Positions 2,836 through 29,514 of a stretch of DNA of 64,000 nt are shown here, piece after piece. Location of the stretch: the NCBI GenBank assembly GCA_963801605.1, contig CAWDFP010000006.1:1696001-1760000 (forward strand), read 5' to 3'. Source of the DNA: an uncultured candidate division Zixibacteria bacterium (GTDB lineage: Bacteria > Zixibacteria > MSB-5A5 > UBA10806). Position 1 is the stretch's first letter. The number at the start of each line of letters is the position of its first letter. Made by a program: the position numbers and the translations under genes. Under the pieces are notes generated by a model. It was not told the DNA's origin. It saw only the letters and a program-made list of their open reading frames with translations, and did no database searches.

Positions 2836-2887
2836 TAAATATTGACATATTTTGACAATTGCATATCTTCTGCCTGAGGCTACGAAA

Positions 2888-5800: not shown

Positions 5801-8800
5801 GCCGCGCACGGCGCTTATGACCAGGACGTGGTTTCCGATACTCTGTCTGCTTTCCCGGATTCGGTTCAGGTAAGAGCCCGATCGATCATCTCATATGTTT
5901 CCGGTTCTCTGCATCCTGATACGCTCTCTTCCGGTTCCACTTATTCTTTGAATCTGCAACTTATAAATGTTGGAGCCGCGTCGCTGGCCCTTTATGATTC
6001 CTCATATATTTATTTTTCCGACGGTTCGAATAATTATAAAGCCGATATATCGGCCCCGGCTTATTTGACTCCAAATAATCCAGTTCTCATAACATTTGAT
6101 GCGGCGCTCGTCCCGCCAGGATTTACTCCCGGAACTTACACTCCTGTTTTCCAATATTTTGCCAATGAAAATGATCATTTCCGTTCGGGACAGGTTATTT
6201 TATCTGATCAGATACTAATTCAAAGCGCTCCTGAGATTTCATTTCACGGCCAGCTCAATATCCACAGCCTGGTCGCAGGACAAATTGTTTCGTTTGCTTT
6301 GGATGTTCTTAACAGCGGCCAGGCGGATTTCATCATTAACCATCAAGCCACCAGAATATCCCTCAGCGATTCCCAGCGTGAGTTTGTCGCTTATTCCGAC
6401 ACAACCAATGGAGTAAGAACGGATACGCTTCATAATGGGGTAACGACATTCCATTTCGCGCCAACGGAATTTCCATCTAATTTCACATACCGGTATGTAT
6501 CTTCCTTTAGTTACCTTTGACGGACGGCAAAATGGTTACGACACGAGCTTCACTTTCTATCTCGGGATCGATTCTGTATGGGTAATGTCTCCGGCTCTGA
6601 TACGCATCGATTCAACTAATACCATTTCTCGTAACGCACCTTTTGTAAACATTGCTCAGCCCTGCTCGATCAAAGTTACCATTGAAAATTTGGGATGGGA
6701 AAGGGCTGACTCCTTTTATATTCACCTGGCCACCGATGGCGCGTCTCAATTTCCAGATTCCATGCTTGTATCTTCGCTCGATGGCCGCCATAATCAAAAT
6801 ATCGTATTCCACTTAGCCGCTGGAGCATCATCGAATCCCAACGAGATCTTTAATAGCTCCGTTTCCGGAGGAAAAGGAAACTTAAGCGGGAATCCCCTCC
6901 AAATCGGGCCCCCGCTCGATAATAATGCTCTCCTGATTACTGAAATTCCAGCCGACTTAGCTCTTTCTTCAATTAATATCATTGGTCCGCCCGGTGCTCT
7001 CGATAGCACTATCTCCATCGAACAGCCGCTTACTGTTTCGGTTACGGTGCGAAATTTGGGTGAGGCCGATATTTCCCAACCAAGAATTCTGACTCTATAT
7101 CCGGGGGATGCCAATTGGGGAGTTGATTCTCTGCAGCGCGATTACATTCTTGGCCAGCCGGTGATCTGGCATCTGACTGCGCCCCCAATCGCTGTGGATT
7201 CCGCAGGGTTTTCGATCGGAATCTCCGGCAGCCCAATAGACTTGAACGACGGCTCGCCGGCCATCGGACCGAACGGTGTCTCGCTGATATGGTTTGCTAT
7301 AGAAAACAGAGCATCGATAGACCACTCTGCTTCAATTACGGAGCCTGCCGGAGCCGCTGACGGTATATTGTCAACGGATCAAACTATCATCGTTCGCGAC
7401 ATTTTGAGTCCGCACGGACTTTACCGAAGCAAGGCTGTTCAGTTAATCCTTCCCGACGGTTTCACAACTCAGGATTCGCTTGTTAAATATCCATCATCAG
7501 ATACAGCATTCTGGCATCTGCGGGCGCCTTCCGCGGCCACTGTCGATACCGCTAATATCGCATGTTGGATTTTTGACCTCAACAGGGGAGACTCATCAGA
7601 AGCGCCGTCTATTTCAATTCCACTTACAGTAGTCGATGCCGCTGAGCTTCAAATTTCGACAAGTATCATCGGCCCGCCGAGCGCTCAGGATGGTATCATC
7701 GAACCTGGCGGGCATTTTCAGTTTGAGGCCATGGTTAGGAATCTCGGTCAATCCGGAGTCAGCGCCGGCAGGATGACTATTCAAACCGGACGCTCCGATA
7801 TTACCACTGATATTTACAGCAAAAACTTCGTAGTTGGAGAACCAATCGATTGGACTATTAATTTGCCCAACGAGGAAATTCCGTTGCCAGTCCCGATTTG
7901 GGTTACTATTGATTCCATCCCAATCGAAGAAAATACAAATTTACCGGCTCACGTTTTAATTGATTCCGCCGGCGTTTCGATAGTAGTCAGAGAGCTTTTC
8001 CCCAGACTGGTGCTGGCGGGTATTACTTCGAATCATTCAGGTTCAGCTTTCAAAGGTCAGCAGTTGGGTTTTGCAACTATCGATCTACAAAACCGTGATT
8101 TCGGCGGCAATTTTGATATTGGAATAATGAGCCTTTCGGTAATAGTCAACAATAATCCGGATTTGCCTGCCGGACAGCTTCTTTCCAGTGCGACTTTAGG
8201 ATTCGGTTCTGAAAGCACTATCTCCGGGATATTCCAGGGCGATACGATCCTATTTAGTCAATTTGATACCTTGATGTTAGGTCCATCGCAGACAATATCC
8301 TTTAATCTTAATTTTGAAATTAATCCCGCCACTTCAGTTCGAGATTTTACCGTCCAATTTGCCTGGAATTTTGTGCAGGCCGGGGTGTTTGAAAACGGCA
8401 CATTTGTGGAAAATATAACGCCAGTTATGCCCCGGGGCGAATCGGTAAGTTGGCAGAGTGAACCATCAGCGATACTTGAGCCGAACTTTACGGCATCGCT
8501 TTCCAGCTATCCTAATCCTTTCAGTCCTCAGGATGGCGGTACGACAATTGGATATTTTCTACCAGCAGCTTCAAATCTTGAAATTAGGATATTTACCCTC
8601 TTAGGCGAACTGGTTTGGACTAAAACTATATCAGCAGCCGATCCGTTAGGCGCTGCCGGTCTCCATAGCGGTTCAAATGCGCTTCTATGGAATGCTACCA
8701 ACGATGTCGGCAACGAAATCCGCTCGGGTGTTTATATCTGTATGGTTAGAAATTTAACTTCAGGGGAGGAGGCAAAATTCAAAATCGCAGTTGTAAAATA

Positions 8801-8801
8801 G
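2888..8801 (+). CDS. Giant (~1,970 aa) secreted Ig-repeat surface protein with C-terminal FlgD/T9SS-sorting-like domain, split by three single-base indels (~4443, ~5722, ~6488)
   Basis: Four consecutive ORFs join by single-base shifts. Repairing the first junction gives TGGGSSPDSIPPTF, paralogous to downstream SGGGPSPNGTLPNF. Signal peptide follows ATG 2888. C-terminus reads 'SYPNPFSP..TTIGYFL..IRIFTLLGELV..WNATND.G..IRSGVYIC..KIAVVK'. Confidence 0.8.
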
Positions 8802-8806: not shown

Positions 8807-10627
8807 TTGGCTGTGGGATTTATCCTTTCCCTGACCTCTCTTGCTTTTTGCCAGGGTGACGCCGGACGCGAGTCGCCGTTTTCGCTGGGTGCCGGCGCTC
8901 GCGGTATGGGTATGGGACGGTCGTTTGTCTCGTTAGGCGGGGATGCGTCCTCCGCATTTTCTAATCCGGCTGCAACCGCGACGATTGACCGTAGCGAGTT
9001 CATGGCTTTTCACACCTCGCTATTTATGAGCACCAATTATGATTGCCTGGCGCTGGCTCATCCGATAGGTGTTCTGGGAGTCTTTACCGTTTCGGCTGGA
9101 CGGTTAGGGACTGGTAGTTTTACCGGACGCGATGCATATAACCGTCCCAACCAGGAAATTTCCGCATCCAATACGCATCTGGGTTTATCATACGGCCGTG
9201 ACGTAGGACGCGGTTTTGCCGCTGGCCTAACGCTAAAGGGAGTGGGGCAAGAGATTGGAAACAACTCCGGATACGGGTTTGGCCTGGACCTGGGCTTTCA
9301 GTATCGTCCAACAATGGCTAAGGGGCTGATTTTAGGGGTAGCATTTAACGATCTAATTCGTCCAAGTATAAAACTAATTAATATTAAAGATAAATATCAA
9401 ACCGAATCACGATACGGCATTTCATATAACAGGAAATTTTCAACCAGTGTTGCCGCCACCGGGGTATTCGAGGTTGATAAAATCTCGGGAAGAAAAACGC
9501 ACATTCACCCTGGCCTGGAATTTGCCTTCTATAACGATTACGCCCTTCGTATAGGTTATGATAAAGATCGCCCCACATTCGGGGCCGGTATCGCCTACAG
9601 CGTTTTCCGTCTTGATTATGCTTACGAGGATATTCAGTATCTGGGCGGAAGTCATCGAGTTTCTTTGAGTATCTCTTTCGGCAAATCGGTTCGACGCAGT
9701 CAGACTGAGTTAATTGCCGAAGCAGTCCAGAGCGAAAAAGCAAACTGGCAAAAATCGCTCGATGAGAAAAAGATGTACGATTTCGCCGCTTACATATATA
9801 CCGCGGACAGCCTTCGAGGCCTTAATCAGTATCAGGATGCCATGTTTTTCTATGAACGCGCCCTGGCGTCTAATGAAACATCGACCCGCGCCCGTACAAT
9901 GTCTGACAGCATGATGACGCTGATTGTTGCTAATGCAGCATCTACCGCCCGCGATCAAAAGCGAGAGGACCTCATATCCAAAAGGGTTACGGCCGCGCTT
10001 GATGATTTCAAAGCGGGACGATTCAACGAAGCTATCGACCAATATGAATTGGCGCTTGAAATCGACCCAATGAATAAAAATGTTTCGGATCTGTTAAGTT
10101 CGGCCCGCGCCACTCGCCAGACGGAAATTGATAAAACCAGAGCCAACGCTCATTCCTTGCAGGCTAAAGGAGACTTCCCCGGCGCTCTGATCGCCTGGAA
10201 TAGGGTTTTGGTGCTGGAGCCGACTGATCCCGATGCTCTGAGTAATATCGAAATTGCAAAAAAGGCGATTAATGTCAACTCCCTGATGGCATCGGCGATA
10301 ACCGCTATGAGCGAACAAAGATATTCCGATGCCGCCACTTTATTACAGCAGGCTCAAACAATCCGGCCTAACGACTCTACCATTAAATCGCTTTTAGCCG
10401 AATCGAAAGCCAAGGCCGCACCAGTTACCAGCCTGGCCGATATCAAAGCTAACTCCGAGAACTGGGCTACCTACTTAAGTGGGCTTGAAAGCTACCAGGC
10501 AAGCAACTATAAAAAGGCGCTCGAAAGCTGGGAAAGCCTTCAGCAGTATTATCCGAATAACCCCGATCTTGAAAAGAATATAAATCAGGCCAAACAGAGA
10601 CTTTCTACCGAGGGCGGGAAAGATTAG
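8807..10627 (+). CDS. PorV/PorQ-family outer-membrane beta-barrel fused to a C-terminal TPR region
   Basis: 'LGAGARGMGMG...NPA' FadL/PorV-like N-terminus. The barrel ends at 'RLDYAY....LGGSHRVSLSISF' and is followed by ~310 aa of helical/TPR sequence. Confidence 0.8.
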   Translation: MAVGFILSLTSLAFCQGDAGRESPFSLGAGARGMGMGRSFVSLGGDASSAFSNPAATATIDRSEFMAFHTSLFMSTNYDCLALAHPIGVLGVFTVSAGRLGTGSFTGRDAYNRPNQEISASNTHLGLSYGRDVGRGFAAGLTLKGVGQEIGNNSGYGFGLDLGFQYRPTMAKGLILGVAFNDLIRPSIKLINIKDKYQTESRYGISYNRKFSTSVAATGVFEVDKISGRKTHIHPGLEFAFYNDYALRIGYDKDRPTFGAGIAYSVFRLDYAYEDIQYLGGSHRVSLSISFGKSVRRSQTELIAEAVQSEKANWQKSLDEKKMYDFAAYIYTADSLRGLNQYQDAMFFYERALASNETSTRARTMSDSMMTLIVANAASTARDQKREDLISKRVTAALDDFKAGRFNEAIDQYELALEIDPMNKNVSDLLSSARATRQTEIDKTRANAHSLQAKGDFPGALIAWNRVLVLEPTDPDALSNIEIAKKAINVNSLMASAITAMSEQRYSDAATLLQQAQTIRPNDSTIKSLLAESKAKAAPVTSLADIKANSENWATYLSGLESYQASNYKKALESWESLQQYYPNNPDLEKNINQAKQRLSTEGGKD

Positions 10628-10686: not shown

Positions 10687-13611
10687 ATGGCTCGAAAATT
10701 AGTAAAAGAAGTATTCATGACGTTCCCCGCAGCGGAGGATCAGCTTGAGGATATCCGCAGCAGTGTGCGAAATGTGCTTTCCGAGGGTGACCTTTCTGAT
10801 AAGGCTGCCAACGGCGTACTTTTGGCTATCGAGGAAGCCTGTACTAACGTTATCCGACACGCTTACCTGTATGGACCGGGTGTTATCAGGATTAAGGTTA
10901 AGCTTTATCAAGATAGAGTAATTTTTTCCATATTTGATCGCGGGCGCAAATTCGATTTCGATCATTCCGAGGTGCCCGATCTGGATCGTTATATTCGCAC
11001 CGGCCGCAAGGGTGGCCTGGGCCTTTACCTCATCCGCAAGATGATGGATTCGGTGGAGTACTATTCCCGCGATGGCGAAAACGAGCTTCGCATGGAAAAA
11101 CGCTCCGACCGGGCAACTGCCCGCGCCATTCGGCCTCGAGGTATTTCAATTCGTGTTAAATTTGCATTATGGGCATCGTTAGTTGTTTTCGCCATAGTAG
11201 CAGGAGTATATCTCTATTTCCAAAATCAGGTGCGATTAAATGCCGAGCAACGCTTTTTCTCGGGCGCCGATAATAGTATCAATTCCTTTGTCTCCGATAT
11301 TGGCGATAAAACCGTCTTGAGAGACCCCGATCTCATGCGATCCGCCGATACCTGGCTGCGCTCCAACACCGATTTTTCCTATGTCATCGTAACTGATACC
11401 GCCAATATTATTATCGCTAATCCTCTTGCTTCCAGGGATTTTCTGACGGAATATTTCCCTAAACCGGAGGGAGAATATAATATCAAATTCGCCCAGGGCG
11501 ATTCCGCCGGGCAAAAGGAATTTAATTTCAAATTGCCGGTTAAACTTCGCGATCAAGTGGTGGGATATGCATATTTCGGCCTGATGGAACGGCCTTTGCT
11601 TTCGGATATTAGCCAGGCGCGCCGGAATCTTTTTATAATCAGCTTTCTCGGTTTGGTGATCGGTTTTGTAGCGGTATTTGCGCTTTCGAATTATTTCGTA
11701 AAGCCGATTCAAAAGCTCACCGAAGGAGTTAAGCGGATTGGTGAGGGCAATCTCGATCAAACCCTGCCTATCGAAGGCGCTGACGAGTTTTCCGATATTG
11801 CCAGAGCTTTCAACGAGATGACCACCAAGTTTAAAAAGGCCCAGGAAAATGTCGTTGAACAGGAACGCATGCAAAAAGAAATGCAGGTCGCCCAGGAGAT
11901 TCAGCACGCTCTCCTTCCGCGCCGTTTCCCCGATATTGAGGGGTACGATATCTCTACGGTCTACCGCGCCGCTAAGGATGTGGGCGGTGACTATTTCGAT
12001 TTTGTACAGATCGATGAGGATATCTTAGGTATCATCGTGGCCGATGTTTCCGGAAAGGGCGTACCCGGCTCACTGGTCATGACCATGATCCGCACCGCCC
12101 TGCGGCTCGAAGCCAGGGAAAATTATTCGCCAACCGATATCCTGGCGAAAGTCAACCGATTCGTCACCGATGACGTCAAACGCGGCATGTTTATTACTAT
12201 CTTCTTTATCACTCTCGATTCCGCCAAACGAACTATCTCATTCGCCTCGGCCGGCCATAATCCGATGATCCTCTACCGTAAGGATTCCGATTCCTGTTAC
12301 TTCCTCAATACTCGCGGTATGCCGCTGGGAATAGCGCTTCCCGAAGGAGTTAGTTTCGAGGATTCGCTGGAGTTCGATCGCGTCAAACTTAAAAAAGACG
12401 ATATGCTCGTTCTCTACACCGACGGTATCACTGAGGCTATGAACAAAGCCGGAGAGCTTTTCGGAAACGACAGGCTGATCCAATTCATCAAATCTCATTC
12501 TGAATTAGCCCCCGAGGAATTTACAAAAAAGCTCGATGCCGAATTGCATAAATTCACCGGCGGCGCCCCTCAGGGTGATGATATCACCCTGGTTGTGATT
12601 AAAGAGAAGATGATGCTTGATGAGTTAGTTTTCGAAAAACGAAAACGGCTTATCGAGATGGTTGAAAACGAGGGTGTGCCCCTGGAGCAGGCTTGCGAAC
12701 AGATGGGAATTTCGCCGTCTACTTATTATAAATATCGCCGTCGCTGGCTGAAGCTTGGGGATGTCGGTCTTCTCAATAAAAAGTTGCGCGCCGATTCGAT
12801 TATCAGGCAAATTCCTTATGAGGTTCGAAAAGAGATCTTAAAACTGGTGCGGGAAAATCCCGATCTCGGTACCAAGCGTATCCTGGATGAACTCAATAGC
12901 AGAGGGATTATCGATATTGATCAGCGCGGGATATATGAAGAGATGATTCGCCTCCGGCTTAACACCAGAAAAATGCGTTTGGAATATGTCGAGAGAGTCG
13001 GCGGCCTGACGCCCGAGATGAGCGCCGAACTTGAAAAAGAGCTTCTAAAGGACAACGGTAAAAAAGAAGAGGTCGACCGCGGCGAATATCTGGAGATCAT
13101 CAAGAAAAGCCTTGAATCAAAAAAGGGGCAGTTAAGTCCTGCGGCCAGGGAATTGGTTGAGAAGCTTCAGAAAATGGAGCCGGTTTTAGGGGATACCATC
13201 CTTTACGGCGAAATTGCAGCCGAACTAACCAAGCTGCGGGACGGCGAAGATATTGCCAGGCTATTTGAAAGTATTATTCTCAAAATGGCCAATATGACCA
13301 AAGAAAAGGCAGAAAACGAAGCAGCGGCTGCGCAGATCGCGGAGCGTCAGGAACAAGCTCCGCATGCCCCCACTGTCAAAGCTAATGGTATAATTGCCGC
13401 GTTGAATTCCGAGGCAATCCCAACGGAAACTGAACCTGAACAAGGATCGTCTGAATCTACAGTAGATTTATCCGAATTAAGCAAGGAAATTTCGCCGATA
13501 AATATAGTAGACTCAGCCTTAAAGATTGAGAACGAAAACGAAGGGGAGGCGCCAGGGTTCGACTGGGAGGAATATTCGCGCAAGCTTTCTGAGAAACACA
13601 AATCGAAATGA
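10687..13611 (+). CDS. Membrane-anchored RsbW-like kinase / extracytoplasmic sensor / HAMP / SpoIIE (PP2C) phosphatase / tandem HTH fusion
   Basis: HATPase_c_2 motifs EEACTNVIRHAY and GGLGLYLI, two TM helices and a HAMP domain. PP2C motifs VGGDYFD, ADVSGKG, YTDGITEA and DDIT are intact. C-terminal 'ACEQMGISPSTYYKYRRRW' HTH is followed by a second HTH and an acidic tail. Confidence 0.9.
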   Translation: MARKLVKEVFMTFPAAEDQLEDIRSSVRNVLSEGDLSDKAANGVLLAIEEACTNVIRHAYLYGPGVIRIKVKLYQDRVIFSIFDRGRKFDFDHSEVPDLDRYIRTGRKGGLGLYLIRKMMDSVEYYSRDGENELRMEKRSDRATARAIRPRGISIRVKFALWASLVVFAIVAGVYLYFQNQVRLNAEQRFFSGADNSINSFVSDIGDKTVLRDPDLMRSADTWLRSNTDFSYVIVTDTANIIIANPLASRDFLTEYFPKPEGEYNIKFAQGDSAGQKEFNFKLPVKLRDQVVGYAYFGLMERPLLSDISQARRNLFIISFLGLVIGFVAVFALSNYFVKPIQKLTEGVKRIGEGNLDQTLPIEGADEFSDIARAFNEMTTKFKKAQENVVEQERMQKEMQVAQEIQHALLPRRFPDIEGYDISTVYRAAKDVGGDYFDFVQIDEDILGIIVADVSGKGVPGSLVMTMIRTALRLEARENYSPTDILAKVNRFVTDDVKRGMFITIFFITLDSAKRTISFASAGHNPMILYRKDSDSCYFLNTRGMPLGIALPEGVSFEDSLEFDRVKLKKDDMLVLYTDGITEAMNKAGELFGNDRLIQFIKSHSELAPEEFTKKLDAELHKFTGGAPQGDDITLVVIKEKMMLDELVFEKRKRLIEMVENEGVPLEQACEQMGISPSTYYKYRRRWLKLGDVGLLNKKLRADSIIRQIPYEVRKEILKLVRENPDLGTKRILDELNSRGIIDIDQRGIYEEMIRLRLNTRKMRLEYVERVGGLTPEMSAELEKELLKDNGKKEEVDRGEYLEIIKKSLESKKGQLSPAARELVEKLQKMEPVLGDTILYGEIAAELTKLRDGEDIARLFESIILKMANMTKEKAENEAAAAQIAERQEQAPHAPTVKANGIIAALNSEAIPTETEPEQGSSESTVDLSELSKEISPINIVDSALKIENENEGEAPGFDWEEYSRKLSEKHKSK

Positions 13612-14351
13612 TCAAATTAGCCATCTTGACAGCCAAAGGCGGTACCGGGAAAACCACAACGGCCATCAATCTGGGCCACGGTTTGGCGCTATCCGGAAGG
13701 CGTGTGCTGATTATTGATTGTGATCCTCAAGGCTCGGCCTCAGCCGCTTTTGGAATCAATGGCGAACACGGATTGGCAGATCTTCTCCTGGACGGAAAAG
13801 TCGATATATTCCAGGTTCGGCCCCATCTTTATTTGGTACCATCAGGACGAAAACGTTTGGCGGAACTCGAAATCAAACTGGCGGCCCGTCCGGATCGCCT
13901 GGAACGTCTAAAAATTGCGCTTGCCAGGCTTTCCGGCTGCGATTGGGTTATTTTGGATTGCTCTCCATCAATAAATGTAGTAAATTTGAATGCCTTAGGT
14001 TTTGCCGATAAACTTTTAATACCCTCCTCACTTGATTACTTTTCTCTGGAGGGTGTAAAGTCGACCATGGAGTTGACCGTCGAATTGGCGGCAAATGGAG
14101 CAGGGAAGCTTGAAATATTGGGGGTTTTGCCGACATTTTACGATAAGAGGACAAGCGTTTCGCGTATGGCGCTTGAGACCCTTAGAAACACTTATGGCAA
14201 AATGGTATTTGATACCGAAATCAGGCTTAATACCGAGATTAAAAAGTCGCAGTGGTATAAAAAAACGGTTTTTGAGTTCGCTCCCTATTCACATGGGGCT
14301 TACGATTACTATAAATTGGCAAAGGAAGTCCTGGAAAGGATACAGGTTTGA
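13608..14351 (+). CDS. ParA/Soj-family ATPase (orphan, no adjacent parB)
   Basis: Deviant Walker A KGGTGKTTT, DCDPQG and DCSPS. Start overlaps the upstream stop (ATGA). Confidence 0.92.
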   Translation: MIKLAILTAKGGTGKTTTAINLGHGLALSGRRVLIIDCDPQGSASAAFGINGEHGLADLLLDGKVDIFQVRPHLYLVPSGRKRLAELEIKLAARPDRLERLKIALARLSGCDWVILDCSPSINVVNLNALGFADKLLIPSSLDYFSLEGVKSTMELTVELAANGAGKLEILGVLPTFYDKRTSVSRMALETLRNTYGKMVFDTEIRLNTEIKKSQWYKKTVFEFAPYSHGAYDYYKLAKEVLERIQV

Positions 14352-14357
14352 GGGGAT

Positions 14358-15071
14358 ATGAGCGATATTAAAATCTCTCTCGACAGTTCGGGGCCAAAAG
14401 GCGAAATCTCCATCGTCCGCGTCGACGGCGTCATCGATACCATGACCGCTACCGATTTGGAAAAGGTAATGAATTCCCTTCTAGAACGACGCCGTTATAA
14501 CGTAATTATCGATCTTGGCGGAGTCGACTACATCTCATCCGCCGGATGGGGTATTTTTATTTCCAATATCAGGGAGATTCGTCAGCATTCCGGCGATATC
14601 AAACTGGCCAGAATGATTCCCAATGTATATGAAATTTTCGAGTTATTGGAATTTGATAGTATTCTCAAAGCTTTCGATAGCGTCGAAAAGGCCAAGACCG
14701 ATTTCGATGGCATTAAAAAAGCGGTATCTGATGACGAAAGCAAAGAAGCCGTGCCTCAGGCCACAACCAAGATGGAGACTAAGATTGTCAAACCGGATAC
14801 CTCCGGCGTTCCTCAAACTACGAAGCCGATAGATCCCCAGCCCACAGCCAAAACCGAATTTCCTGTTAAGCTTGAGCCGCATGATGTGGTTATCGAGATG
14901 ATTTCCAAGGATCCCTTTCTAACTATTTCCGAAATCAAAAGCGAAATTGCCAAAAAACATCCCGAATTGAGGGTTGGCTGGTGGAAAATCTGGGGGATAT
15001 TGAAGCGCGAGAAACTTCTTGGCAGGAAAAATCGGTTTCGTAAAGCCCGGCTTAAATCCGGAGGCAATTGA
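14358..15071 (+). CDS. STAS anti-sigma-factor antagonist with C-terminal HTH-like domain
   Basis: STAS motifs 'G.ID..TA..LE', 'DLGGVDYISSAGWG' (phospho-Ser) and 'VYEIFELLEF'. A P/T/K linker leads to a basic helical domain. Confidence 0.9.
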   Translation: MSDIKISLDSSGPKGEISIVRVDGVIDTMTATDLEKVMNSLLERRRYNVIIDLGGVDYISSAGWGIFISNIREIRQHSGDIKLARMIPNVYEIFELLEFDSILKAFDSVEKAKTDFDGIKKAVSDDESKEAVPQATTKMETKIVKPDTSGVPQTTKPIDPQPTAKTEFPVKLEPHDVVIEMISKDPFLTISEIKSEIAKKHPELRVGWWKIWGILKREKLLGRKNRFRKARLKSGGN

Positions 15072-15075
15072 AAAC

Positions 15076-16917
15076 ATGTCCAATTCCAGGCTCTGGCTTA
15101 TAATTTTTTCCCTATTCTTCTTTTGCCTTTTGGCATTCGGGGTGGCGATTGTCTTAAAAACAGCCTGGATCACCGCTTTAGTAGTCGTACTCGTTTTAGC
15201 GATCTCGGCCGTTTTAATAATTTCCTTCAATAAAACTTCGCGGGATTTAGCAATTCTATCGAAAATTACCCAGCCTGTAAAATCTACAGAGAACATTTTA
15301 GCCTTTAGGCTTTTAGCCGAACTTGACCTCTCCGCTATCGAGAAAAAATCGCCGGCCTTGAAAGCCGCTGAATTAATAAGGGAGAAATTCCAGCTTGAAA
15401 GTTTCGCCATATTCTTCCGTGAGGAAGATAAATATATCCCCAAGATTTACTCCGGAATAAACAGGATCGGCCTCGCTGCGCCGCCAATCCAAAAGCTAAG
15501 CCCCGCAATGAAAAGCAATATCAATATTGGGGCTTTGTCCAGTGATGAGAGTGATATCCTGACAGCATTCAAACGCGATGGAGTTAATATCGCTTCCTCG
15601 ATGATAGCCTTCGCTTATTCCTGGAGCCGGATGCACTCGGTTTATCTGATTGCCGACGATTCTCTCGGACGATTTTCCGAATCGCTGCGAGACTCTGAAT
15701 TCAACCGCATTTTCTGGCCCGGTCTGGATAATGAATTAAGGCAAAATCAAAAATTTCTGGAAAGAGGGCAGGAGGTTCGTGAACTTGGCCGCCAGTTGGA
15801 TCAAGCCAAAAAGGACATTGGCGATTTAAACAGGGAGCTTAAAAATAAGCTTTTGGATCTCAGGGCTTTCGTAAATATATCCAGCGATCTCTATTCGCTT
15901 TTCAGTGAAGAAGAGCTGCTTTCCAGGCTCAAACAGATAGTATGTGAAAAGCTTGGCGCCGCTTCAGCCGAAATCCTGGTACCTTCCGGTGATAGCCGTT
16001 TCATTCCCCACGCTGCCGGTGATGCCGGTCAGGCTGCTATGGACCTGTCATTGGATTCCGAATCGGAATTGGCAGAACTTATTTCAAAATCGCCTCGCCC
16101 CGTGTTACTGCCGTTGGCCGGGTCAGGTTTTAAGCGCAACGAACCTTTCCTTCGAGCAGCCCTGACTTTGAATTTTCAGATAGCCTCGGCGATCAGAACC
16201 TCCGGGCATACGGCTTGTGTACTGATGGTTTCTCAGAAAAAAGATAAGACTCAGTTTACCAATCTCGATCTCGATGTTTTATATATAATTACCAATATTG
16301 CATCACTGGCGCTCGACAATATCCATCAATATTCAACAATAGAAAAATTATCTTATACCGATAGCATGACGGGGATTTATAACTACCGATACTTTTACAA
16401 ACGTCTTAACGAAGAAATTTTGCGCGCCAAACGTTACGACCGTGAACTGGCGCTGGTCATTCTCGACATCGATAATTTTAAATCCTTTAATGATAATTTC
16501 GGTCACCAGGCCGGAGATCTGGTACTAAAGCAATTGTCTGATTTGATTACCAAAACTATTCGTTCAATCGATGTGGTCAGCCGATATGGAGGCGAAGAAT
16601 TCTGTATTATCATGCCGGATACCGGTATCGGCCATTGCCAAATATTTATAGAAAGGCTTCGTTCTCAAATTGCGGATTTTAAGTTTGAATCGAATCTTTT
16701 CCAAAAAGGCGGCAGTATATCGGTGTCGGTGGGAGGGGCGGTCTACCCGCAGCACGCTCCCATGCCCGATCGGCTCATTTACTGCTCCGATATGGCGCTT
16801 CTCAAGGCTAAGGCGTTGGGACGAAATCGGGCTGTGATGTATGAAGCGGATATTTCCTTTGAGTCAAAATCCACGGAAGGGGGATTTAATGGAAGCCGTC
16901 AAGAATCGATGCTATGA
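15076..16917 (+). CDS. Membrane-anchored GAF-GGDEF diguanylate cyclase
   Basis: Two N-terminal TM helices, a coiled coil and a GAF-like domain. TDSMTG, DIDNFK.FND.FGH.AGD, RSID I-site and RYGGEEF active site are present. Confidence 0.92.
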   Translation: MSNSRLWLIIFSLFFFCLLAFGVAIVLKTAWITALVVVLVLAISAVLIISFNKTSRDLAILSKITQPVKSTENILAFRLLAELDLSAIEKKSPALKAAELIREKFQLESFAIFFREEDKYIPKIYSGINRIGLAAPPIQKLSPAMKSNINIGALSSDESDILTAFKRDGVNIASSMIAFAYSWSRMHSVYLIADDSLGRFSESLRDSEFNRIFWPGLDNELRQNQKFLERGQEVRELGRQLDQAKKDIGDLNRELKNKLLDLRAFVNISSDLYSLFSEEELLSRLKQIVCEKLGAASAEILVPSGDSRFIPHAAGDAGQAAMDLSLDSESELAELISKSPRPVLLPLAGSGFKRNEPFLRAALTLNFQIASAIRTSGHTACVLMVSQKKDKTQFTNLDLDVLYIITNIASLALDNIHQYSTIEKLSYTDSMTGIYNYRYFYKRLNEEILRAKRYDRELALVILDIDNFKSFNDNFGHQAGDLVLKQLSDLITKTIRSIDVVSRYGGEEFCIIMPDTGIGHCQIFIERLRSQIADFKFESNLFQKGGSISVSVGGAVYPQHAPMPDRLIYCSDMALLKAKALGRNRAVMYEADISFESKSTEGGFNGSRQESML

Positions 16918-17971
16918 AGCGATCTTGATTAAAATTGCATTAGCGCTATTTGGGCTGATTTTTATAGGGCAGTTTTGTGCTTTAGCGAGCGCCTCTGCTC
17001 AGGATACCGCCGGCAAACAAGCCCAGGCTAATGATCAAACCGTAAATCAGCCTCAAACCGGTCAGGAATCTTATGTTATCGGTAACCTCGATATGCTGTC
17101 GGTAGCATTCTGGCAGCAACCGGATCTCAACCGCGATGTTCGAGTTGATGAGAACGGGATGATAAGTTTGCCGGTTATCGGCGATATCAAAGCTGCCGGT
17201 TTGACGCCTAACGAGCTTTCCAAAAAAATCGTGCAGCAAATGAGTATCTACAACACTCCAGTCTCACAGGCAACGGTTAATGTCACCGAGTTTAACTCCC
17301 GAAGCGTGGTGGTCGCCGGTCGGGTTCTCACTCCGGGCAGCCGCCGATATGAAAAGATACCCGACGTTTGGCAGGTCATTCTTGACGCCGGCGGACCTAT
17401 GTCCGATGCCGACCTTTCACGCGTGACTATTGTCAGGAAAGAGGGCGAGAAATCTAACGTTATCAATGTAGATATATATAAGATCATTCAGTCGGGCGAC
17501 CTTGCTAAAGCTCCTCAGCTTCAGCCGGGAGACCTGGTCAACGTTCCCATATCCAGTTATGGCACGAATATAAGCATGTCCCTACCCACTCAACCCAGAT
17601 TTGAAGGCAGAAATATATTTTTCGTCTTTGGACAGGTTGTCGAACAGGGTCCGCGGAACCTTGAAGAGGGAATGGATGTTTTGGACGGGATTGCGCTTGC
17701 CAGAGGGTATACTCCTGATGCCGATCTCAAGCACGTTAAAGTTATAATGAAGGACGCTAAATATTCTAATGTCATAAAGCTGAATTTGGAAAAGTATATG
17801 TCAAGCGGTCAGCCTCCCAGAATAATGCTTCATCCGGAGGATACCATAATTGTGCCCACCCGAAGCAGTTTCTTCACAACCGCCATGTCGCATCTGAATA
17901 CTATTCTGCCTGCACTGGGCACTACGGCGACCCTGGTACTTGTGATAAGAGAAATTCAAAGGAATCCCTGA
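16889..17971 (+). CDS. Polysaccharide export protein (Wza/OPX-like, Poly_export plus SLBB repeats)
   Basis: 'YVIG..D.L.V.FWQQPDL...VRVDENG.ISLP.IG.IKAAGLTP.EL' motif, SLBB repeats and a C-terminal amphipathic helix. Confidence 0.9.
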   Translation: MEAVKNRCYEAILIKIALALFGLIFIGQFCALASASAQDTAGKQAQANDQTVNQPQTGQESYVIGNLDMLSVAFWQQPDLNRDVRVDENGMISLPVIGDIKAAGLTPNELSKKIVQQMSIYNTPVSQATVNVTEFNSRSVVVAGRVLTPGSRRYEKIPDVWQVILDAGGPMSDADLSRVTIVRKEGEKSNVINVDIYKIIQSGDLAKAPQLQPGDLVNVPISSYGTNISMSLPTQPRFEGRNIFFVFGQVVEQGPRNLEEGMDVLDGIALARGYTPDADLKHVKVIMKDAKYSNVIKLNLEKYMSSGQPPRIMLHPEDTIIVPTRSSFFTTAMSHLNTILPALGTTATLVLVIREIQRNP

Positions 17972-18131
17972 TGAACCTGGCTTATGGTTTTGAACGGTTG
18001 GGCATTGAATTTTCCAGCGAACAAAAACCATAATTACCGTCTAAAATGAAATAGCGGGCTTGCGAAAGTTAGAATATTAATATATACATTTTGATGTATC
18101 AGGATAATTATTAAATCTCGAAGGTAGTGCT

Positions 18132-19718
18132 TTGGAAAACGAAAAATCGCAAATAGATTTAAGAAGTTACTGGGCTATTCTGGGAAGGCGCAAAGCGCTT
18201 CTGATCTTGCCGCTTATGATTGTGCCCCTGGTCGCATTCATCATAACTTATTTTATGAAACCGACCTATGTTTCAACCGTGTCCATTCTGATTGGCGATA
18301 CTATGGTTTTACCTACTCCAGTTCAACAGGATGTACAGGGTCGAAACGGCGGATACGATTATCGAAGCGCCCAGGAATTGCAGAGTTCTTATCTAAATCA
18401 GATCACATCGACGAAATACCTGAAACGCCTTATTGCCGTTCTTAATATCCCGATCTCGGAAGAAGTTAAGCGCATGGTCGCTTTAACCAAGGCCAATTAC
18501 CCCGATGTTACTGAAAGCGATCTGGCTGAAAATATCCTTTCCGACCAGCTTCGCAAAAGGGTCATGGTCTCGATGAGATCCAACAACCTTATCGATCTCT
18601 CGGTTGTATCCATAGATCCGATCAGCGCACGGAAAATGGCGGCGGCCCTGGCAGATATCTTCATTGAAGAGAACCTGGCATCCGAACTGGCCGGGATTCG
18701 CTCCAGTATTTCCTTCTCAGAAGATCAACTGGCATTTTATAAAGATAAACTTAAAGAAGCCGAGGATAAGCTTCGCGACTTCAGGCAGGGCATCTTATCA
18801 TCATCGTTCGGCCAGGATACCAGCTCGATCAATCTCAGGGAGATTGCCTCTGCGGTTCAGACGCTGGATATAGAAATATCCAATGAACAGGAACAGCAGG
18901 CCGGCCTGCGTTCAGCGCTGGATCAGGAAAGCGTCGATGTTTCCGCATTTACACTGCCTCCCGGAGTCAGCACTCTCAGGGATAGACTGCTTGGTAATGT
19001 CAACCAGCTTGCTAATCTTCTTACAAGTTATTCCTGGCGAGATGCCAAGGTTGTGAGTCTTAATGAGGAGTCCCGCGGCCTTATCACTGATATTACCACT
19101 CAGATTCGTACCTGGGCGGAGCAAAAATATGCCGCATCACCTGCTAATGTACGAGAGACTATCATCGAATATCTCGCCGGTAATATTGTCACCGATTTTA
19201 ATCATGCCAAGCGCGCCAGCCTCGATTCATATATAGGGAAAACCAAAACGAAGCTTGGCGAGGACCCGGGAACCGAAATTACCTTGCAAAGACTTCAAAG
19301 CGAGGTCGACAGTTATAAGAGATTCTATGACCTCTTCGTTTCTCATTCCCAGAATGCTGCTATCAACCAATCGGCCATAAAAGTTGAGGCCGAGGCTAAA
19401 TATACCATCATCAGGCCGGCTTCTCTGCCCCTGGCGCCTGATTCGCCAAATAGATTTCGGATTTTTGGCATGGGTATCGCCTTAGGCCTGGTATTGGGAT
19501 TTGGCGCTATTCTGACTGTCGAGCTTCTTGATGATTCCTTTAAGAAAATTGAAGATGTGACCCACTACTTGAAACTGCCCGTCATCGGAACCATCCCAAG
19601 AATGGAGCTTCCCTTTGGCAACTCCTCGAAAAAAAGATTTCCGATAATAATTGGCTTGGGCATCAGCATGGTGCTCATCATGATTATAGTATTCTTACAT
19701 TTTAAGAAGAACGGATAA
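18132..19718 (+). CDS. Polysaccharide co-polymerase (Wzz/Wzc N-terminal, GumC-like)
   Basis: 'IDLRSYW.IL.RRK', TM, long coiled coil, 'PASLP.APDSPN', TM and 'E.LDDSF...EDV...L.LPVIGTIP'. Confidence 0.88.
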   Translation: MENEKSQIDLRSYWAILGRRKALLILPLMIVPLVAFIITYFMKPTYVSTVSILIGDTMVLPTPVQQDVQGRNGGYDYRSAQELQSSYLNQITSTKYLKRLIAVLNIPISEEVKRMVALTKANYPDVTESDLAENILSDQLRKRVMVSMRSNNLIDLSVVSIDPISARKMAAALADIFIEENLASELAGIRSSISFSEDQLAFYKDKLKEAEDKLRDFRQGILSSSFGQDTSSINLREIASAVQTLDIEISNEQEQQAGLRSALDQESVDVSAFTLPPGVSTLRDRLLGNVNQLANLLTSYSWRDAKVVSLNEESRGLITDITTQIRTWAEQKYAASPANVRETIIEYLAGNIVTDFNHAKRASLDSYIGKTKTKLGEDPGTEITLQRLQSEVDSYKRFYDLFVSHSQNAAINQSAIKVEAEAKYTIIRPASLPLAPDSPNRFRIFGMGIALGLVLGFGAILTVELLDDSFKKIEDVTHYLKLPVIGTIPRMELPFGNSSKKRFPIIIGLGISMVLIMIIVFLHFKKNG

Positions 19719-19723
19719 TAATT

Positions 19724-20842
19724 ATGCCTCCGATTGGATTTACGGATAAGTTCAGACGTTTGGATCGCGAATACCTGATGCAAACATCGGTAAGTGAAGC
19801 TCGCAAGGCGATCGTTTGTTCGCTTTTTCACTCGGGTTTGCTGATTAACTCCCGGACTTTTCCATTGCCGCCCAATCTCGAAGGCGACGCTTTATTGGAA
19901 AAAGTGGCCAAACATCATGAGCATTGCCTTTCGGATATCAACTCCCTGTTGGGTCTTGTGGAGCGCATGAAAGAACTCGATAAGCCGGAGATCATTGAAA
20001 AACTGGGACGAACTCTCTGTTCGCATGAACTATACGATGAGGGATGCAGCCTGTTGGATTACGCTGTTCAAAAGTACCCCGAATCTCCCGGACTACGGTT
20101 TGCGTTGGGACGGATTTGTCTGGCTAAGGGAAAATTCGAAGAGGCCTGTGAGCAGCTATCGCGGGCGGTGGAGTTGGCGCCAGTATATCCCGATTACCGT
20201 AATCTTCTCGGCGTTGCTTTTCTTAAGACCAATAAACCGGTAGCAGCCATAGACGAATTCCGTAAAGCTGTGGAAATCAATATTTATTATGATGAAGCAT
20301 ATTTCAACCTGGGCCTTGGATATATATTGAATGGGATTGTCAAAGAAGATTTCAATCTGGCAAAAAATCTTCTGCACAACTGTCAGGAAACATTTCAAAA
20401 AGCTGCTCTATTTAATCCCGCCTTTGGCACTGAGGAATATGAAAAAGGCATGGCGCTTTTAAGTGAGGGTCAACTGGAACCAGCTTATGAAATTCTTGGC
20501 AACGTTGGCAGGGACGCTGTCAATCATCGCGCCGACGAAAAGCTGCTTGAAATGTATATGCGCTATATTTACGGGCAACCGGGGTTAACCGAAGCCGGGA
20601 TAAAGCAATATCTCGAGGAAGTAAGCGAGCTTCTCAAATCCAATCCGGGGCATGCCGATCTGCACAACGAACTTGGTATGGCTTATATGATAATGAGCAA
20701 ATTCCTGAACAATAAAGCAATGGAGCACTTCCAGGAGGCATTGAGGATTAATCCCAATTTCCTCAAGGCCGCCAGGAATCTCAAGCTTTCTCAGAATGAT
20801 CTGAAAGGCTTTGAGGTCCTGCTGGACGCGATTATCAGATGA
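19724..20842 (+). CDS. Cytoplasmic TPR protein
   Basis: TPR motifs (YPDYRNLLG, HADLHNELG, ALRINPNF). No signal peptide. Confidence 0.8.
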   Translation: MPPIGFTDKFRRLDREYLMQTSVSEARKAIVCSLFHSGLLINSRTFPLPPNLEGDALLEKVAKHHEHCLSDINSLLGLVERMKELDKPEIIEKLGRTLCSHELYDEGCSLLDYAVQKYPESPGLRFALGRICLAKGKFEEACEQLSRAVELAPVYPDYRNLLGVAFLKTNKPVAAIDEFRKAVEINIYYDEAYFNLGLGYILNGIVKEDFNLAKNLLHNCQETFQKAALFNPAFGTEEYEKGMALLSEGQLEPAYEILGNVGRDAVNHRADEKLLEMYMRYIYGQPGLTEAGIKQYLEEVSELLKSNPGHADLHNELGMAYMIMSKFLNNKAMEHFQEALRINPNFLKAARNLKLSQNDLKGFEVLLDAIIR

Positions 20843-21552
20843 ACGATAGAAAGCAGATGTCATTATTATCGGTTTATCATAAAGAATCGGCGATCGGCAC
20901 CGAGTTTCGTCGCTTGTATTCCAATATCAGAAGTAAAAGTCAGGGTCGGAAAATTCAAAACCTGATGATTACATCCGCTACGGTGGGGGAGGGCAAATCG
21001 CTGACCAGCAGTTTGCTTGCCATAACCATAGCCGAGCTTACCAAGCTCAAAGTGGCGTTAGTTGATTTTGATTTGAGACGCCCCAAGATTTCAAGTTATT
21101 TCGGTCTGGAGAACGACGGTGGAGTAGCTGACGTTTTAACCGGCAAAGCGTCGTTAAAAGCGGTCTCACAAAAGACTACTGCCCCGAATTTGACTGTTAT
21201 TCCCGCCGGGCATCTGGATAAGCTTCCCACCGACGTACTTGAACATGAGCATGTCGCCAATTTCTTTCAAGAATTGAAATTCTATTTCGATCAGGTTATA
21301 GTTGATACCCCTCCTATTATTCCCGTTTCAGATCCCATGCTCCTGGCCGAGCATGTCGATAGCGTCATTCTCGTGATAAGGGGAGGCTCCACCCAAAGAG
21401 ATGTCGTCAGCAGGGCGTCCAATCTTCTGATCAACGCCAATATTGATATCCTTGGAGTGGTTCTTAATGATTTCGAGGAAGTCCTACCGTATTATTACAA
21501 GGAAAAATATTACGGGTATCATTATTATCACAAAGATTTAAAGATTGAATGA
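20839..21552 (+). CDS. BY-kinase (CpsD/CapB-type tyrosine autokinase)
   Basis: Walker A GEGKS, A' DFDLRRP, B DTPP and C-terminal Tyr cluster YYYKEKYYGYHYY. Confidence 0.93.
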   Translation: MNDRKQMSLLSVYHKESAIGTEFRRLYSNIRSKSQGRKIQNLMITSATVGEGKSLTSSLLAITIAELTKLKVALVDFDLRRPKISSYFGLENDGGVADVLTGKASLKAVSQKTTAPNLTVIPAGHLDKLPTDVLEHEHVANFFQELKFYFDQVIVDTPPIIPVSDPMLLAEHVDSVILVIRGGSTQRDVVSRASNLLINANIDILGVVLNDFEEVLPYYYKEKYYGYHYYHKDLKIE

Positions 21553-21779
21553 CACATCTCAATAAATGCTGCAATGCATTATTTCTGCATTTATTTGCAT
21601 AATCGACTGATTTTGTTTATTCCAATTTAGGGATAATTCCTATTAATTTTCCGCGAGCACGAAACCCGGCCTTATTTCTGGTTTTGTAAGTTATTATATT
21701 TTATGAACTTACAATACCTATGATGCGCTTGTCTCTTAAATAATTTTTTAACGCAAACTTAATCCTCGTGGCTTGTTCG

Positions 21780-21795
21780 TGGCAGCAAATTTGCA
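21780..21795 (+). promoter_or_regulatory. Putative sigma54 (-24/-12) promoter
   Basis: TGGCAGCAAATTTGCA matches TGGCACGNNNNTTGCW spacing and lies 58 nt upstream of the sugar transferase. An AT-rich IHF-like tract is at ~21685-21712. Confidence 0.6.
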
Positions 21796-21853
21796 TTAAG
21801 AGGGAGCAAAAGGGGAAATCTTAAATTAGATAATTTTTATCGGAGATAGATTA

Positions 21854-22753
21854 ATGAGATACCAATATCCTGTGCCAAATCCTCTCGGACATTACTGGGA
21901 TGAAGAATCCGTCAGAGTATGGGGCATTAAACTCGGGATTTCTAAAAAAGCCGGATATTACCTGAGCTACTTTCTGGGCGAAATAGTTTTAGCCAATTTC
22001 TTTATGTTATATGCGCTTATCCTAAATCAGGCCTTGCTTCTTGGTTCAAAGAGGGCAGTAGCCAGAGTTTCTCACCGCATTGATATTGGCTCGATTGCTA
22101 AAAGATCGATTGATATCGTTGGAGCCATAGTTGGTTTGATTTTAACCTTGCCACTTTGGTGCTTAATCGCCGTCGCGATAAAGCTTGAATCCAAGGGGCC
22201 AATCTTCTACAAACAAGAACGGGTTGGCCAGAATAGACGCCGTGGTGATCGGCGTGCTGTAATATTGACAGGCCAGGAAAGACGTATTCAGGCGGATCGT
22301 CGTAAAACGCCCGGCCATGGAATGACTTTCATGATTGTGAAGTTCCGCAGTATGCGGCAAGATGCTGAATCCTATAGCGGCCCTGTTTGGGCGCAGAAGA
22401 AGGATCCTCGTATAACCCGCGTTGGACATTTCCTGAGAATCACCAGGTTGGATGAACTTCCGCAGTTTATCAACGTTCTTATCGGAAATATGAGCCTGGT
22501 TGGCCCTCGCCCTGAAAGACCGTTTTTCGTCAACGATCTTCAAACTAAAATTAAAGATTACACTGCTCGTTTTGATGTTAAGCCCGGCATTACTGGTCTG
22601 GCTCAAGTCGAACACAAGTATGACGAAAGTATTGAAGATGTTTCCAAGAAGATTTCTTATGATCTTCGATATATCCACAACTGGACCGTTTTTCAGGACG
22701 TTAAGATCATCATGAGAACCGTGATCGTGGTTTTAACAGCTCGCGGTATGTAG
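21854..22753 (+). CDS. Priming (polyprenyl-phosphate) sugar transferase, Bac_transf family
   Basis: [53 protein letters not shown] and [10 protein letters not shown]. Confidence 0.93.
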
Positions 22754-25944: not shown

Positions 25945-26793
25945 AACCTCGGTTATCGTTTCTCGATAAACTGAATTTATTCGTTAATGCTTATGGGCAG
26001 TTATCTTTAGGTATTTTAAAATTTTCCTGGTGGTCGCCATTTTTCGTATACGCCATTTTTCAAACATTGGGATTCATGGCGCTGCTCTGGTACTATGCTC
26101 CGATGCTGTCGTCCCTGGTTTATCCGCTTATTTCGTTATTTCTACCTGCCAATGCTTTTCACTATCCTCAATATTACCTGGCCTTACCATCGCTTTACGC
26201 TACGTTTGAAAGTCTCATACTCGGTATCACCGCCTGGGTTATCCTGACTGCGGCGGCTGTTTATAGATTGAATGGTGTATATGGCGGCAAGATTCCAAAA
26301 TTTGGTGATGGCGTCAGACTGGCTTTGCGTTCGTACCTGCCGCTGATGCTGGTCTGGCTGTTGGAGACTGCTCTTGTCATCATTATTCTTTATGTACCCA
26401 GTTCGCTTCTAAAAGATTTTACCGCCGGTTCACCCAACCGAACCGCGGCCGTCGACGTTTTTTTCGAAATGATCGGATTGGTGGTAACATCGATGCTGAT
26501 CTACTCCGTTCCTGGAATTATTCTCGATGGCAAAAAGGTTGGCCGCGCTATTCGGGATAGCATCGGGCTCTTCATAAATAATATGTTTCTGACTTATTTT
26601 ATCGTCGTTTATTCCGAGCATCATTCGCATTCTGTTGAATTTACTTCTCACCAGTTATGCTCCCAAAATTATTAGCCTTCTAAACCCGGATTTAATCCCC
26701 GCAACCATGTTTATCTATATTATTGTGGGAATTTTTATTAATCTCTTTGTTTATGGCGCCGCGGTATTTGTCTATAAGAGATTGGCGGGTTGA
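25938..26793 (+). CDS. Polytopic membrane protein, hypothetical (one +1 indel at ~26608)
   Basis: Hydrophobic helices. Removing one T from 'gtttatt' continues the frame IPSIIRILLNLL...YKRLAG to TGA 26793. Confidence 0.65.
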
Positions 26794-29014: not shown

Positions 29015-29428
29015 ATGAGAACGGGAAACAAAAAAGGCTTCACACTGATTGAGCTTATGATCGTGGTGGTCATTATCGGCATCCTGGCCGCTCTGGCAAT
29101 TCCGCGTTTCATGCGCTCAACCACTAAAGCCAAACAATCGGAAGCCAAGCAGCTTCTAAAGCAGATCTACACCATGCAGCACGCCTACAGGCAGGAATTC
29201 AACGCTTACTGCCTTAACGGTGTCACCGCTGCTGCCAGTAGCGCCAACTTTGCCAGAATCGGCGTTGATGTAGGCGCCTCCGCACGTTACAGCTATGCCA
29301 TGGTCTCCGCCGCTAACACCTTCACCTGCACGGCTACGGCCAACCTTGACGATGATGCCACTGTTGATACCTGGACCATCAACCAGGATGGCACATTAGC
29401 TTGCACAATCGACGATTCAGTAACTTGA
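29015..29428 (+). CDS. pilA: Type IVa pilin, copy 1
   Basis: Basic leader, G|FTLIELMIVVVIIGILAALAIP and KAKQSEAK. RBS GAGG. Confidence 0.92.
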   Translation: MRTGNKKGFTLIELMIVVVIIGILAALAIPRFMRSTTKAKQSEAKQLLKQIYTMQHAYRQEFNAYCLNGVTAAASSANFARIGVDVGASARYSYAMVSAANTFTCTATANLDDDATVDTWTINQDGTLACTIDDSVT

Positions 29429-29442
29429 TGAAACGATATGAT

Positions 29443-29470: not shown

Positions 29471-29514
29471 TCATTTTGAACTTGAAAACGATGATCTACT
29501 TTAGGGAGAACAAA

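Follow-up and report, generated by a model that had tools for sequence, protein, structure and literature searches.

A putative sigma-independent partner switch with a one-piece kinase/phosphatase sensor, an STAS-HTH protein and a ParA-type ATPase in uncultured Zixibacteria

Known sigma-free partner switches and the Zixibacteria locus

In Vibrio fischeri, one protein, SypE, is both serine kinase and phosphatase for the STAS protein SypA of a polysaccharide locus, and no sigma factor is known to take part (PMC4517449, PMC8256260; published systems are summarised here from excerpts of the papers cited). The output mode of sigma-free STAS proteins such as SypA has been described as unknown (PMC4517449). 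Here we report a locus that is built on this sigma-free logic. It occupies positions 10687..22753 of a 64,000-nucleotide (nt) stretch of an uncultured Zixibacteria genome, called the window below. Its central gene encodes a membrane sensor, the fusion, in which a RsbW-type serine kinase and a SpoIIE phosphatase are joined in one polypeptide. The system is real and conserved, and apparently undescribed in print. New is its layout: the sensor, a STAS protein with a helix-turn-helix (HTH) tail and a dedicated ParA-type ATPase lie between giant surface-protein and polysaccharide-export genes.

Unlike SypE, a soluble response regulator that receives its input from a phosphorelay (PMC4517449, PMC8256260), the fusion is a membrane sensor with a HAMP domain and an HTH tail; the STAS protein has an HTH too, and genes for a ParA and a diguanylate cyclase are adjacent. 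The HptB-HsbR-HsbA-HsbD system of Pseudomonas aeruginosa also combines a one-piece kinase/phosphatase with a STAS substrate and an adjacent cyclase, HsbD, which binds phosphorylated HsbA and is placed at the pole (PMC5085249). However, HsbA also acts via sigma and anti-sigma factors, the excerpts of that paper describe neither HTH add-ons nor a dedicated ParA, and our locus contains no receiver domain or Hpt. SiaABCD (PMC8457831, PMC7647112) and BgrU/V/W/R of Sinorhizobium meliloti (cited in PMC7647112) have in common with it a PP2C phosphatase, a kinase, a switch protein and a cyclase acting on biofilm or polysaccharide. There, however, kinase and phosphatase are separate proteins and SiaC is phosphorylated on Thr68 (PMC8457831, PMC7647112), whereas the cyclase found here has GAF-like regions, with no conserved stalk seen.

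In the CapK/CapS system, a GHKL kinase, which also has an HTH, phosphorylates a STAS domain fused to a DNA-binding domain; the regulated operon is adjacent and there is no sigma factor (PMC13373217). CapS is a repressor that is switched off by the kinase. CapK differs from the fusion in being soluble, in sensing single-stranded DNA and in lacking a fused phosphatase, and its targets are immune operons. CapS has a MarR/ArsR-like winged helix (PMC13373217), whereas the STAS tail of the window is modelled as four helices without strands and is probably transposase-like. A STAS switch that acts on polysaccharide synthesis is known from Anabaena (PMC13555669). ParA-type ATPases without ParB stand beside signalling or polysaccharide complexes in the orphan systems PpfA/TlpT, ParC/ParP, McdAB and BcsQ (PMC9178275), whereas the predicted cargo here is a membrane serine kinase/phosphatase, bound via its C-terminal helix. 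Nine consecutive A or T suffice for efficient polymerase slippage; in Thermus thermophilus dnaX and Shigella mxiE, runs of at least nine A or T yield long and short products (PMC5009743). In relatives of the window's system, slippage would instead switch between forms of a STAS protein with and without its HTH, whose reading frame is that of the STAS domain in some genomes and a different one in others.

Orthology tests with Pfam and NCBIfam failed for each known system that could be tested. The fusion has no receiver family among its Pfam matches at E 0.05, which sets it apart from SypE and HsbR. SiaA is its best NCBIfam model over the HAMP-PP2C part, with 95 bits against a cut-off of 700, and the cyclase scores 148 bits on SiaD against a cut-off of 290. 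The CapK/CapS arrangement, an HTH-STAS-GHKL kinase beside an immune operon, is not that of this locus, nor does the locus contain the cognate sigma gene of a canonical SigB/SigF-type switch. As the initial annotation had stated, a sigma factor is lacking: all 14 sigma-70 region 2 matches of the genome lie outside the window, the closest about 118 kb from the fusion. The annotation had named SypE/SypA and SiaABCD as precedents, which are valid, and missed HsbR/HsbA/HsbD, BgrUVWR and CapS. A literature search, which most subscription papers and supplements lay outside, returned no paper on the fusion family, on partner switches of Zixibacteria or on slippage in STAS genes, in line with the claim that the architecture had not been characterised.

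The fusion sensor, its partners and their neighbours

Pfam identifies in the fusion the domains HATPase_c_2 (residues 13-138), HAMP (333-380), SpoIIE (446-639) and HTH_23/28 (650-699). Two membrane helices (159-177 and 315-333, from hydropathy) flank a Cache-like periplasmic domain (222-312; a weak sCache_3_2 match, under the cut-off), and the bipartite HTH is followed by a helical and acidic tail. Both enzymes appear intact, as had been claimed. Kinase residues E50, N54, D84, G86 and G109-G112, with the ATP-binding motifs of a GHKL serine kinase, and phosphatase residues D435, D453, D579, G580, D631 and D632, with the metal-binding aspartates of a PP2C phosphatase, do not vary among the 19 orthologues aligned. 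Among named models, RsbW and SpoIIAB fit the kinase best. Beyond the HTH, the tail is exchanged between groups and consists of TPR-like repeats in loci L118, L119 and L121-L123, of three STAS domains in L105-L107 and of a helical region in L115 and L116.

The STAS protein keeps the serine expected of a partner-switch substrate (YISSAG in the initial annotation). The motif Y58-S60-S61-A62-G63 is invariant in all 14 aligned sequences, only I59 being variable, and S61, the predicted phosphoserine, aligns with the serine that follows the aspartate in a solved antagonist. In known partner-switch antagonists, the serine at this position is the phosphorylation site. That the fusion is the enzyme acting on it is suggested by the inventory of the genome, which has two STAS and two RsbW-type kinase domains. 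The second pair has its own phosphatase (near C6:597-600 kb); hence the STAS protein of the window is left for the fusion. In L105-L107, the three STAS domains in the sensor belong to the same SSxGWG subfamily. Moreover, the STAS protein decays where the fusion is missing. In four genomes of family f11 without a full-length fusion match (three without any match, one at E 2e-67, the level of phosphatase paralogues), its identity to that of the window is down to 37-42%, the HTH is lost, and Ser61 is replaced by T in three and by L in one. The support for the STAS protein as the likely substrate is strong but indirect, and we hold a core of fusion enzyme and STAS substrate, as predicted from these comparisons, to be highly probable.

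This core is widespread. Among 151 sampled Zixibacteria genomes, 130 have a match to the fusion and 136 a single match each to the STAS profile; neither profile matched in families f12, f13 and f16. Full-length relatives of the fusion also occur in Latescibacterota, Eisenbacteria, Calditrichia and KSB1, a range that is a lower bound taken from the 80 of 593 relatives listed. Gene neighbourhoods were counted in 40 loci chosen across families of the phylum and in 17 loci from outside it, of which 15 have upstream and 15 downstream DNA. The most constant neighbour of the fusion is a PorV-TPR gene on its 5' side, present in 39 of the 40 phylum loci (in four of these as the TPR part alone) and in 15/15 loci outside; a giant secreted protein gene lies 5' in 35 phylum loci. 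The bounds 10687..22753 given initially thus miss the most constant neighbours, both of which lie upstream. On the 3' side, STAS is found in 32, ParA in 14, cyclase in 31 and wza in 31 of the 40 loci. Outside the phylum, STAS follows the fusion in 13/15 loci, whereas a cyclase or wza gene is beside the module in none of the 15, the neighbours there being unrelated genes. The five-gene order of the initial annotation, fusion-parA-STAS-GGDEF-wza, holds within Zixibacteria (exactly in 12/40 loci) and not, as to cyclase and wza, in other groups. Because PorV-TPR and STAS are kept outside the phylum while cyclase and wza are missing, the ancient core consists of giant secreted protein, PorV-TPR, fusion and STAS-HTH, and the cyclase-export block is an addition of the Zixibacteria. 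A conserved protein of about 720 aa (amino acids) without a Pfam match at 1e-6 follows the STAS gene in L105-L107, L110 and L113; a homologue is encoded elsewhere in the window's genome (C6:1221443-1222984).

The ParA-type ATPase has Soj (1WCV, E 5.6e-42) as its best solved relative. Residues K10, G11, G12, K15, T16, D37, D39 and D117, i. e. the deviant Walker A motif with the signature lysine, switch I and Walker B, are invariant in 33 of 33 orthologues, as are R181 and R206. These orthologues come from 33 of the 151 genomes (E 4e-110 or better; next match 3e-56) and comprise every sampled member of families f1, f2, f5, f8, f18 and f19 and none of the other 13 families. ParA does not track the HTH, since f14, f15 and several loci outside the phylum have an HTH without ParA. 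It does coincide with the last helix of the fusion. With ParA following, 29 of 36 fusion ends match a strict pattern of the Y-x-x-K-L motif and the remaining seven are close variants, compared to one match among 41 complete ends without ParA. The Tyr and Leu of the motif reach a conservation of 90% or more in the 33 ends aligned, three duplicates having been left out. L105-L107 keep both the helix and ParA, although the rest of their tail consists of the three STAS domains, and a motif profile trained on Zixibacteria gives 13.1 bits for L105 and 6.7 for L106, above all 44 ends without ParA (top 2.9). These results support that ParA belongs to the switch system; that it docks on the last helix of the fusion is a prediction which we consider somewhat more probable than its opposite.

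Table 1. Features of the signalling and export locus and of its upstream genes (window positions)
Feature	Position	Strand	Remarks
Giant secreted surface protein, C-terminal domain like that of the type IX secretion system (T9SS)	2852..8801	+	four pieces in the window
PorV/PorQ-family barrel with C-terminal TPRs	8807..10627	+	NCBIfam NF033709, 111 bits (cut-off 90)
Fusion sensor (RsbW-type Ser kinase to HTH and acidic tail)	10687..13611	+	974 aa
Bipartite HTH of the fusion, aa 651-763	12637..12975	+	NF033577 positions 1-112 of 284, E 2.8e-16
C-terminal helix with Y-x-x-K-L motif, predicted ParA docking site	13558..13608	+	co-occurrence with ParA
Soj/ParA-type ATPase, KGGTGKT	13608..14351	+	start overlaps fusion stop
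STAS-HTH protein	14358..15071	+	STAS aa 1-115, variable linker, HTH aa 170-237
Membrane-anchored diguanylate cyclase (GAF-like middle, GGEEF, RxxD)	15076..16917	+	likely start ATG 15076
Wza/OPX polysaccharide export protein	16889..17971	+	likely start ATG 16889
Wzc-N/Wzz chain-length protein	18132..19718	+	closest model XrtA/PEP-CTERM type, under cut-off
TPR protein	19724..20842	+	Pfam
BY-kinase	20839..21552	+	TIGR01007 over cut-off
Priming glycosyltransferase	21854..22753	+	after a 301-nt gap

The tight run of five genes from 10687 to 17971 and the genes that follow it (Table 1) are all present as initially annotated. Fusion and parA overlap by 4 nt, ParA and STAS are 6 nt and STAS and cyclase 4 nt apart, and cyclase and wza overlap by about 29 nt; the wider gaps are 160 nt upstream of Wzc-N and 301 nt upstream of the priming glycosyltransferase. 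The latter has this position mainly in the window's own gene order, an XrtA-type deacetylase being there in most other families. A homologue of the TPR protein is found inside the signalling module of L105-L107 and L112, between fusion or ParA and STAS or after STAS. With a SprA match in the genome, it is plausible that the giant protein is exported by a T9SS-type route. In relatives, this protein is a single open reading frame of about 2000-2600 aa; the window copy is broken near 4444, 5717 and 6470. A truncated membrane protein at 25938-26675 (245 aa, about 280 aa in relatives) and a SpoIIE paralogue broken at G000:C5:28935-29661 were also noted. Because the copies of relatives are intact, all three probably reflect assembly indels.

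A scan of the window for promoters and terminators stayed at chance level (32 against 25.8 +/- 4.6), and an Rfam scan gave no match within the locus. Past the locus, at 29015-36046, three tandem type IV pilin-like genes (two near-identical), a prepilin peptidase-like gene and a sensor kinase were read from the sequence, so that the region resembles a surface-adhesion cluster. The 23S rRNA gene of the window contains a group I intron (53241-53518; Rfam RF00028, 64 bits) and with it measures 3393 nt, compared to 2925 positions of the model.

HTH add-ons, slippage and the cyclase

Judged from profiles and models, both HTH add-ons are related to the DNA-binding region of IS481 transposases. In the fusion, the match to the transposase model is confined to positions 1-112 of 284, and the integrase catalytic core has no match; an active insertion sequence is ruled out by the missing core and by conservation across groups. 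The structure model of the module (predicted local distance difference test score 88.6) has Pax paired domains, TnsB and Tc3 as best fold matches, all weak (E 0.058-0.69). The STAS tail has no Pfam match, and its identity as an HTH comes from a profile alignment with the second half of the fusion module (probability 78, E 1.7e-5) and from a structure model with four helices and no strands, on which many HTH folds tie at Z 5.0-5.8. Searched on its own, the tail finds 14 close relatives only. Across 93 sequences, P, L and R are invariant in it and D, F, E, W, L and F nearly so, and it is retained in groups without an adjacent cyclase (L110, L113-L116, L118, L119, L123, L126).

On a profile of the second half of the fusion HTH, nine STAS tails from outside the phylum score 31-50 bits. 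Median scores are 29 for the copies borne by GT2 glycosyltransferases, 14 for the STAS tails of Zixibacteria and 12 for IS481 transposases. These scores favour a common origin of the fusion and STAS copies. A tree of the second HTH places fusion and STAS copies apart from most GT2 and all IS481 copies (Shimodaira-Hasegawa-like approximate likelihood ratio test 89). This tree, a quick search over 135 rows and 72 columns with two in three Zixibacteria STAS rows left out, does not suffice to demonstrate a single origin. Closest among the other carriers are GT2 enzymes, with a GT2 domain in 26 of 30 scanned proteins; large ones (up to 2949 aa; P0095, P0105-P0108, P0110 and others) start with two tandem copies of the module.

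In families f3 and f11, all 62 two-domain STAS-HTH genes carry a run of nine to eleven A 193-208 nt past the phosphorylation motif, whereas none of 59 STAS genes of other families does; the survey covered 128 of the 136 STAS loci, with five f3/f11 loci without the motif left unscored. Behind the run, the HTH lies in the -1 frame in 38 genes, in the +1 frame in two and in the STAS frame in 22; in all 62, the HTH frame is open from the run onwards. Two f3 genes without the run are also without the HTH. The window's own gene has only six A and is in frame. Assembly error as the cause of the split genes was ruled out, since the run is ten A long in most in-frame and most out-of-frame genes and the shifted-frame peptide is conserved; three more assemblies of one sample, which are not independent for that reason, have the same split and no indel. 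With in-frame, -1 and two +1 arrangements all on record, a pure -1 ribosomal frameshift is the poorer explanation. A gene of family f5 (G144) is out of frame without a run, which is probably an error. Programmed slippage would leave a run of at least nine A in a constant position and a conserved coding sequence in the shifted frame, as observed, and is predicted for the f3/f11 genes with high confidence.

The cyclase has an active site and an RxxD inhibitory site (RSID-x5-GGEEF), as the initial annotation had it. Of 42 cyclases, nearly all retain RxxD and the GG[DE]E motif; the N-terminal region is very variable. Where STAS is beside the fusion, a cyclase gene lies on its 3' side in 28 of 32 loci; where STAS stands apart and downstream DNA is available, one does so in 10 of 17. 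In family f4, STAS has been relocated and the cyclase remains with the fusion (7/7 STAS loci). The relocated STAS-HTH gene there (L181-L185, L198) is directly 5' of another large protein of about 1245 aa with a similar secretion-type C-terminus. In 42 of 61 f3/f11 loci, a sigma-70-type promoter (TTGACA-N17-TATATT type) is found just past the STAS gene and before the cyclase, compared to 0/30 loci of other families and 2.7% in shuffles. Such a promoter would fit both a cyclase gene under transcriptional control of STAS-HTH and one that is independent of it. In family f18 (L040, L103, L117), the wza-wzc-TPR-kinase-deacetylase block lies in inverted orientation, facing the cyclase gene.

Proposed mechanism and alternatives

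A possible interpretation is that a two-way sensor sets the phosphorylation of STAS-HTH, which regulates surface genes on DNA, while ParA positions the sensor; as a whole, we give this explanation a probability of about 0.5. A cue in the periplasm, perhaps connected with the PorV-TPR barrel and the giant protein as its cargo, would act through HAMP to shift the balance of kinase and phosphatase, and the target would very probably be Ser61. Phosphorylation could then alter the association of the STAS domain and hence DNA binding by the HTH, as in CapS, with no need for a sigma factor. Targets in Zixibacteria may include the neighbouring cyclase-wza-wzc block. ParA would bind the Y-x-x-K-L helix and thereby position the sensor. 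In f3 and f11, but not in the window, slippage of RNA polymerase on the run of ten A would yield STAS-only and STAS-HTH products. The initial annotation had proposed a positioned or DNA-coupled switch over polysaccharide through cyclic di-GMP (c-di-GMP). A sigma-independent switch that includes ParA remains of this proposal, but control via c-di-GMP is weaker than claimed; it is the weakest step, because the cyclase and wza neighbours are found in Zixibacteria only and often have their own promoter.

Several observations weigh against this explanation. The HTH module also sits on membrane GT2 glycosyltransferases and may thus serve protein or membrane contact. Upstream of the cyclase gene, the operator search found only a T-tract and the -35/-10 boxes conserved, and the fold matches of the STAS tail are generic (best Z 5.8). 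Free STAS proteins lack the HTH in L105-L107 and L112, as do most Zixibacteria fusions, so that DNA binding is not required on both proteins. The match between ParA and motif rests on few independent lineages, because kin share both traits, and the motif profile misses L107 (-2.2 bits). Soj presumably binds DNA through two arginines; at the positions that we take to be theirs, with provisional numbering, one is kept (R181) and the other is E here and Q in the consensus, which makes nucleoid-based positioning unsure.

The STAS protein could also bind the adjacent cyclase directly and so set c-di-GMP and polysaccharide, in the manner of SiaC-SiaD or of phosphorylated HsbA and HsbD, the HTH being secondary. 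There are several precedents for this, the cyclase follows STAS in most joined and in over half of the detached loci (28/32 and 10/17), starts 4 nt past the STAS stop in the window and keeps its RxxD and GG[DE]E motifs in nearly all of 42 cases, and slippage would provide a STAS-only form. Yet 15/15 loci outside the phylum have no cyclase beside the module, f4 separates STAS from the cyclase in 7/7 STAS loci, the N-terminal region of the cyclase is very variable whereas the STAS surface is nearly fixed, and the separate cyclase promoter of 42/61 f3/f11 loci is rare in shuffles (2.7%). We regard direct binding as rather unlikely. That the switch controls an unlinked target, e. g. a sigma factor held by the kinase domain, with the cyclase-wza block as nothing but an old neighbour, is quite improbable. 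The 14 sigma-70 region 2 matches of the genome and RsbW and SpoIIAB as best kinase models would agree with it, as would the inversion of the export block in f18 and its absence beside the module in f6. However, no sigma gene is among the annotated neighbours, a membrane kinase fused to a phosphatase and a STAS protein with its own HTH suit a sigma-free output better, and STAS and cyclase often move together.

If instead the HTH modules were docking domains, between sensor and STAS or to a polysaccharide synthase, ParA could be BcsQ-like and assemble the export complex rather than move cargo over DNA. The homology of the fusion and STAS modules, the module that caps GT2 synthases (26/30), the scores of ParA under or near the cut-off of BcsQ models and the absence of one of the two presumed DNA-binding arginines are in line with this. 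But in f3, f4 and f11 the STAS protein has an HTH and the fusion is without one; ParA, which retains the signature lysine, is much closer to Soj than to BcsQ, and it follows the sensor into L105-L107, where no export genes are nearby. HTH modules as docking domains appear quite improbable. Going beyond the sensor that acts through STAS-HTH on DNA, one may imagine a cross-envelope system of several uncultured phyla, in which a T9SS barrel and its cargo feed a kinase/phosphatase that ParA positions through the short C-terminal helix and that contacts DNA by a domesticated transposase domain, the bacterial equivalent of a paired domain, slippage splits STAS into DNA-binding and cyclase-binding forms, and one phosphoserine controls both transcription and c-di-GMP. 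We consider this wider scheme doubtful.

For the signalling field, the locus offers a short candidate ParA-binding helix on a signalling enzyme and a STAS protein whose possible action on DNA would be enzymatically controlled in both directions, which bears on the output of sigma-free STAS proteins such as SypA. The f3/f11 relatives may add a chromosomal signalling gene to the known cases of programmed slippage. For the organisms, the system is a single-copy regulator in most sampled genomes of a phylum without a cultured member, and occurs in other little-studied groups as well; it thus probably governs their surface attachment.

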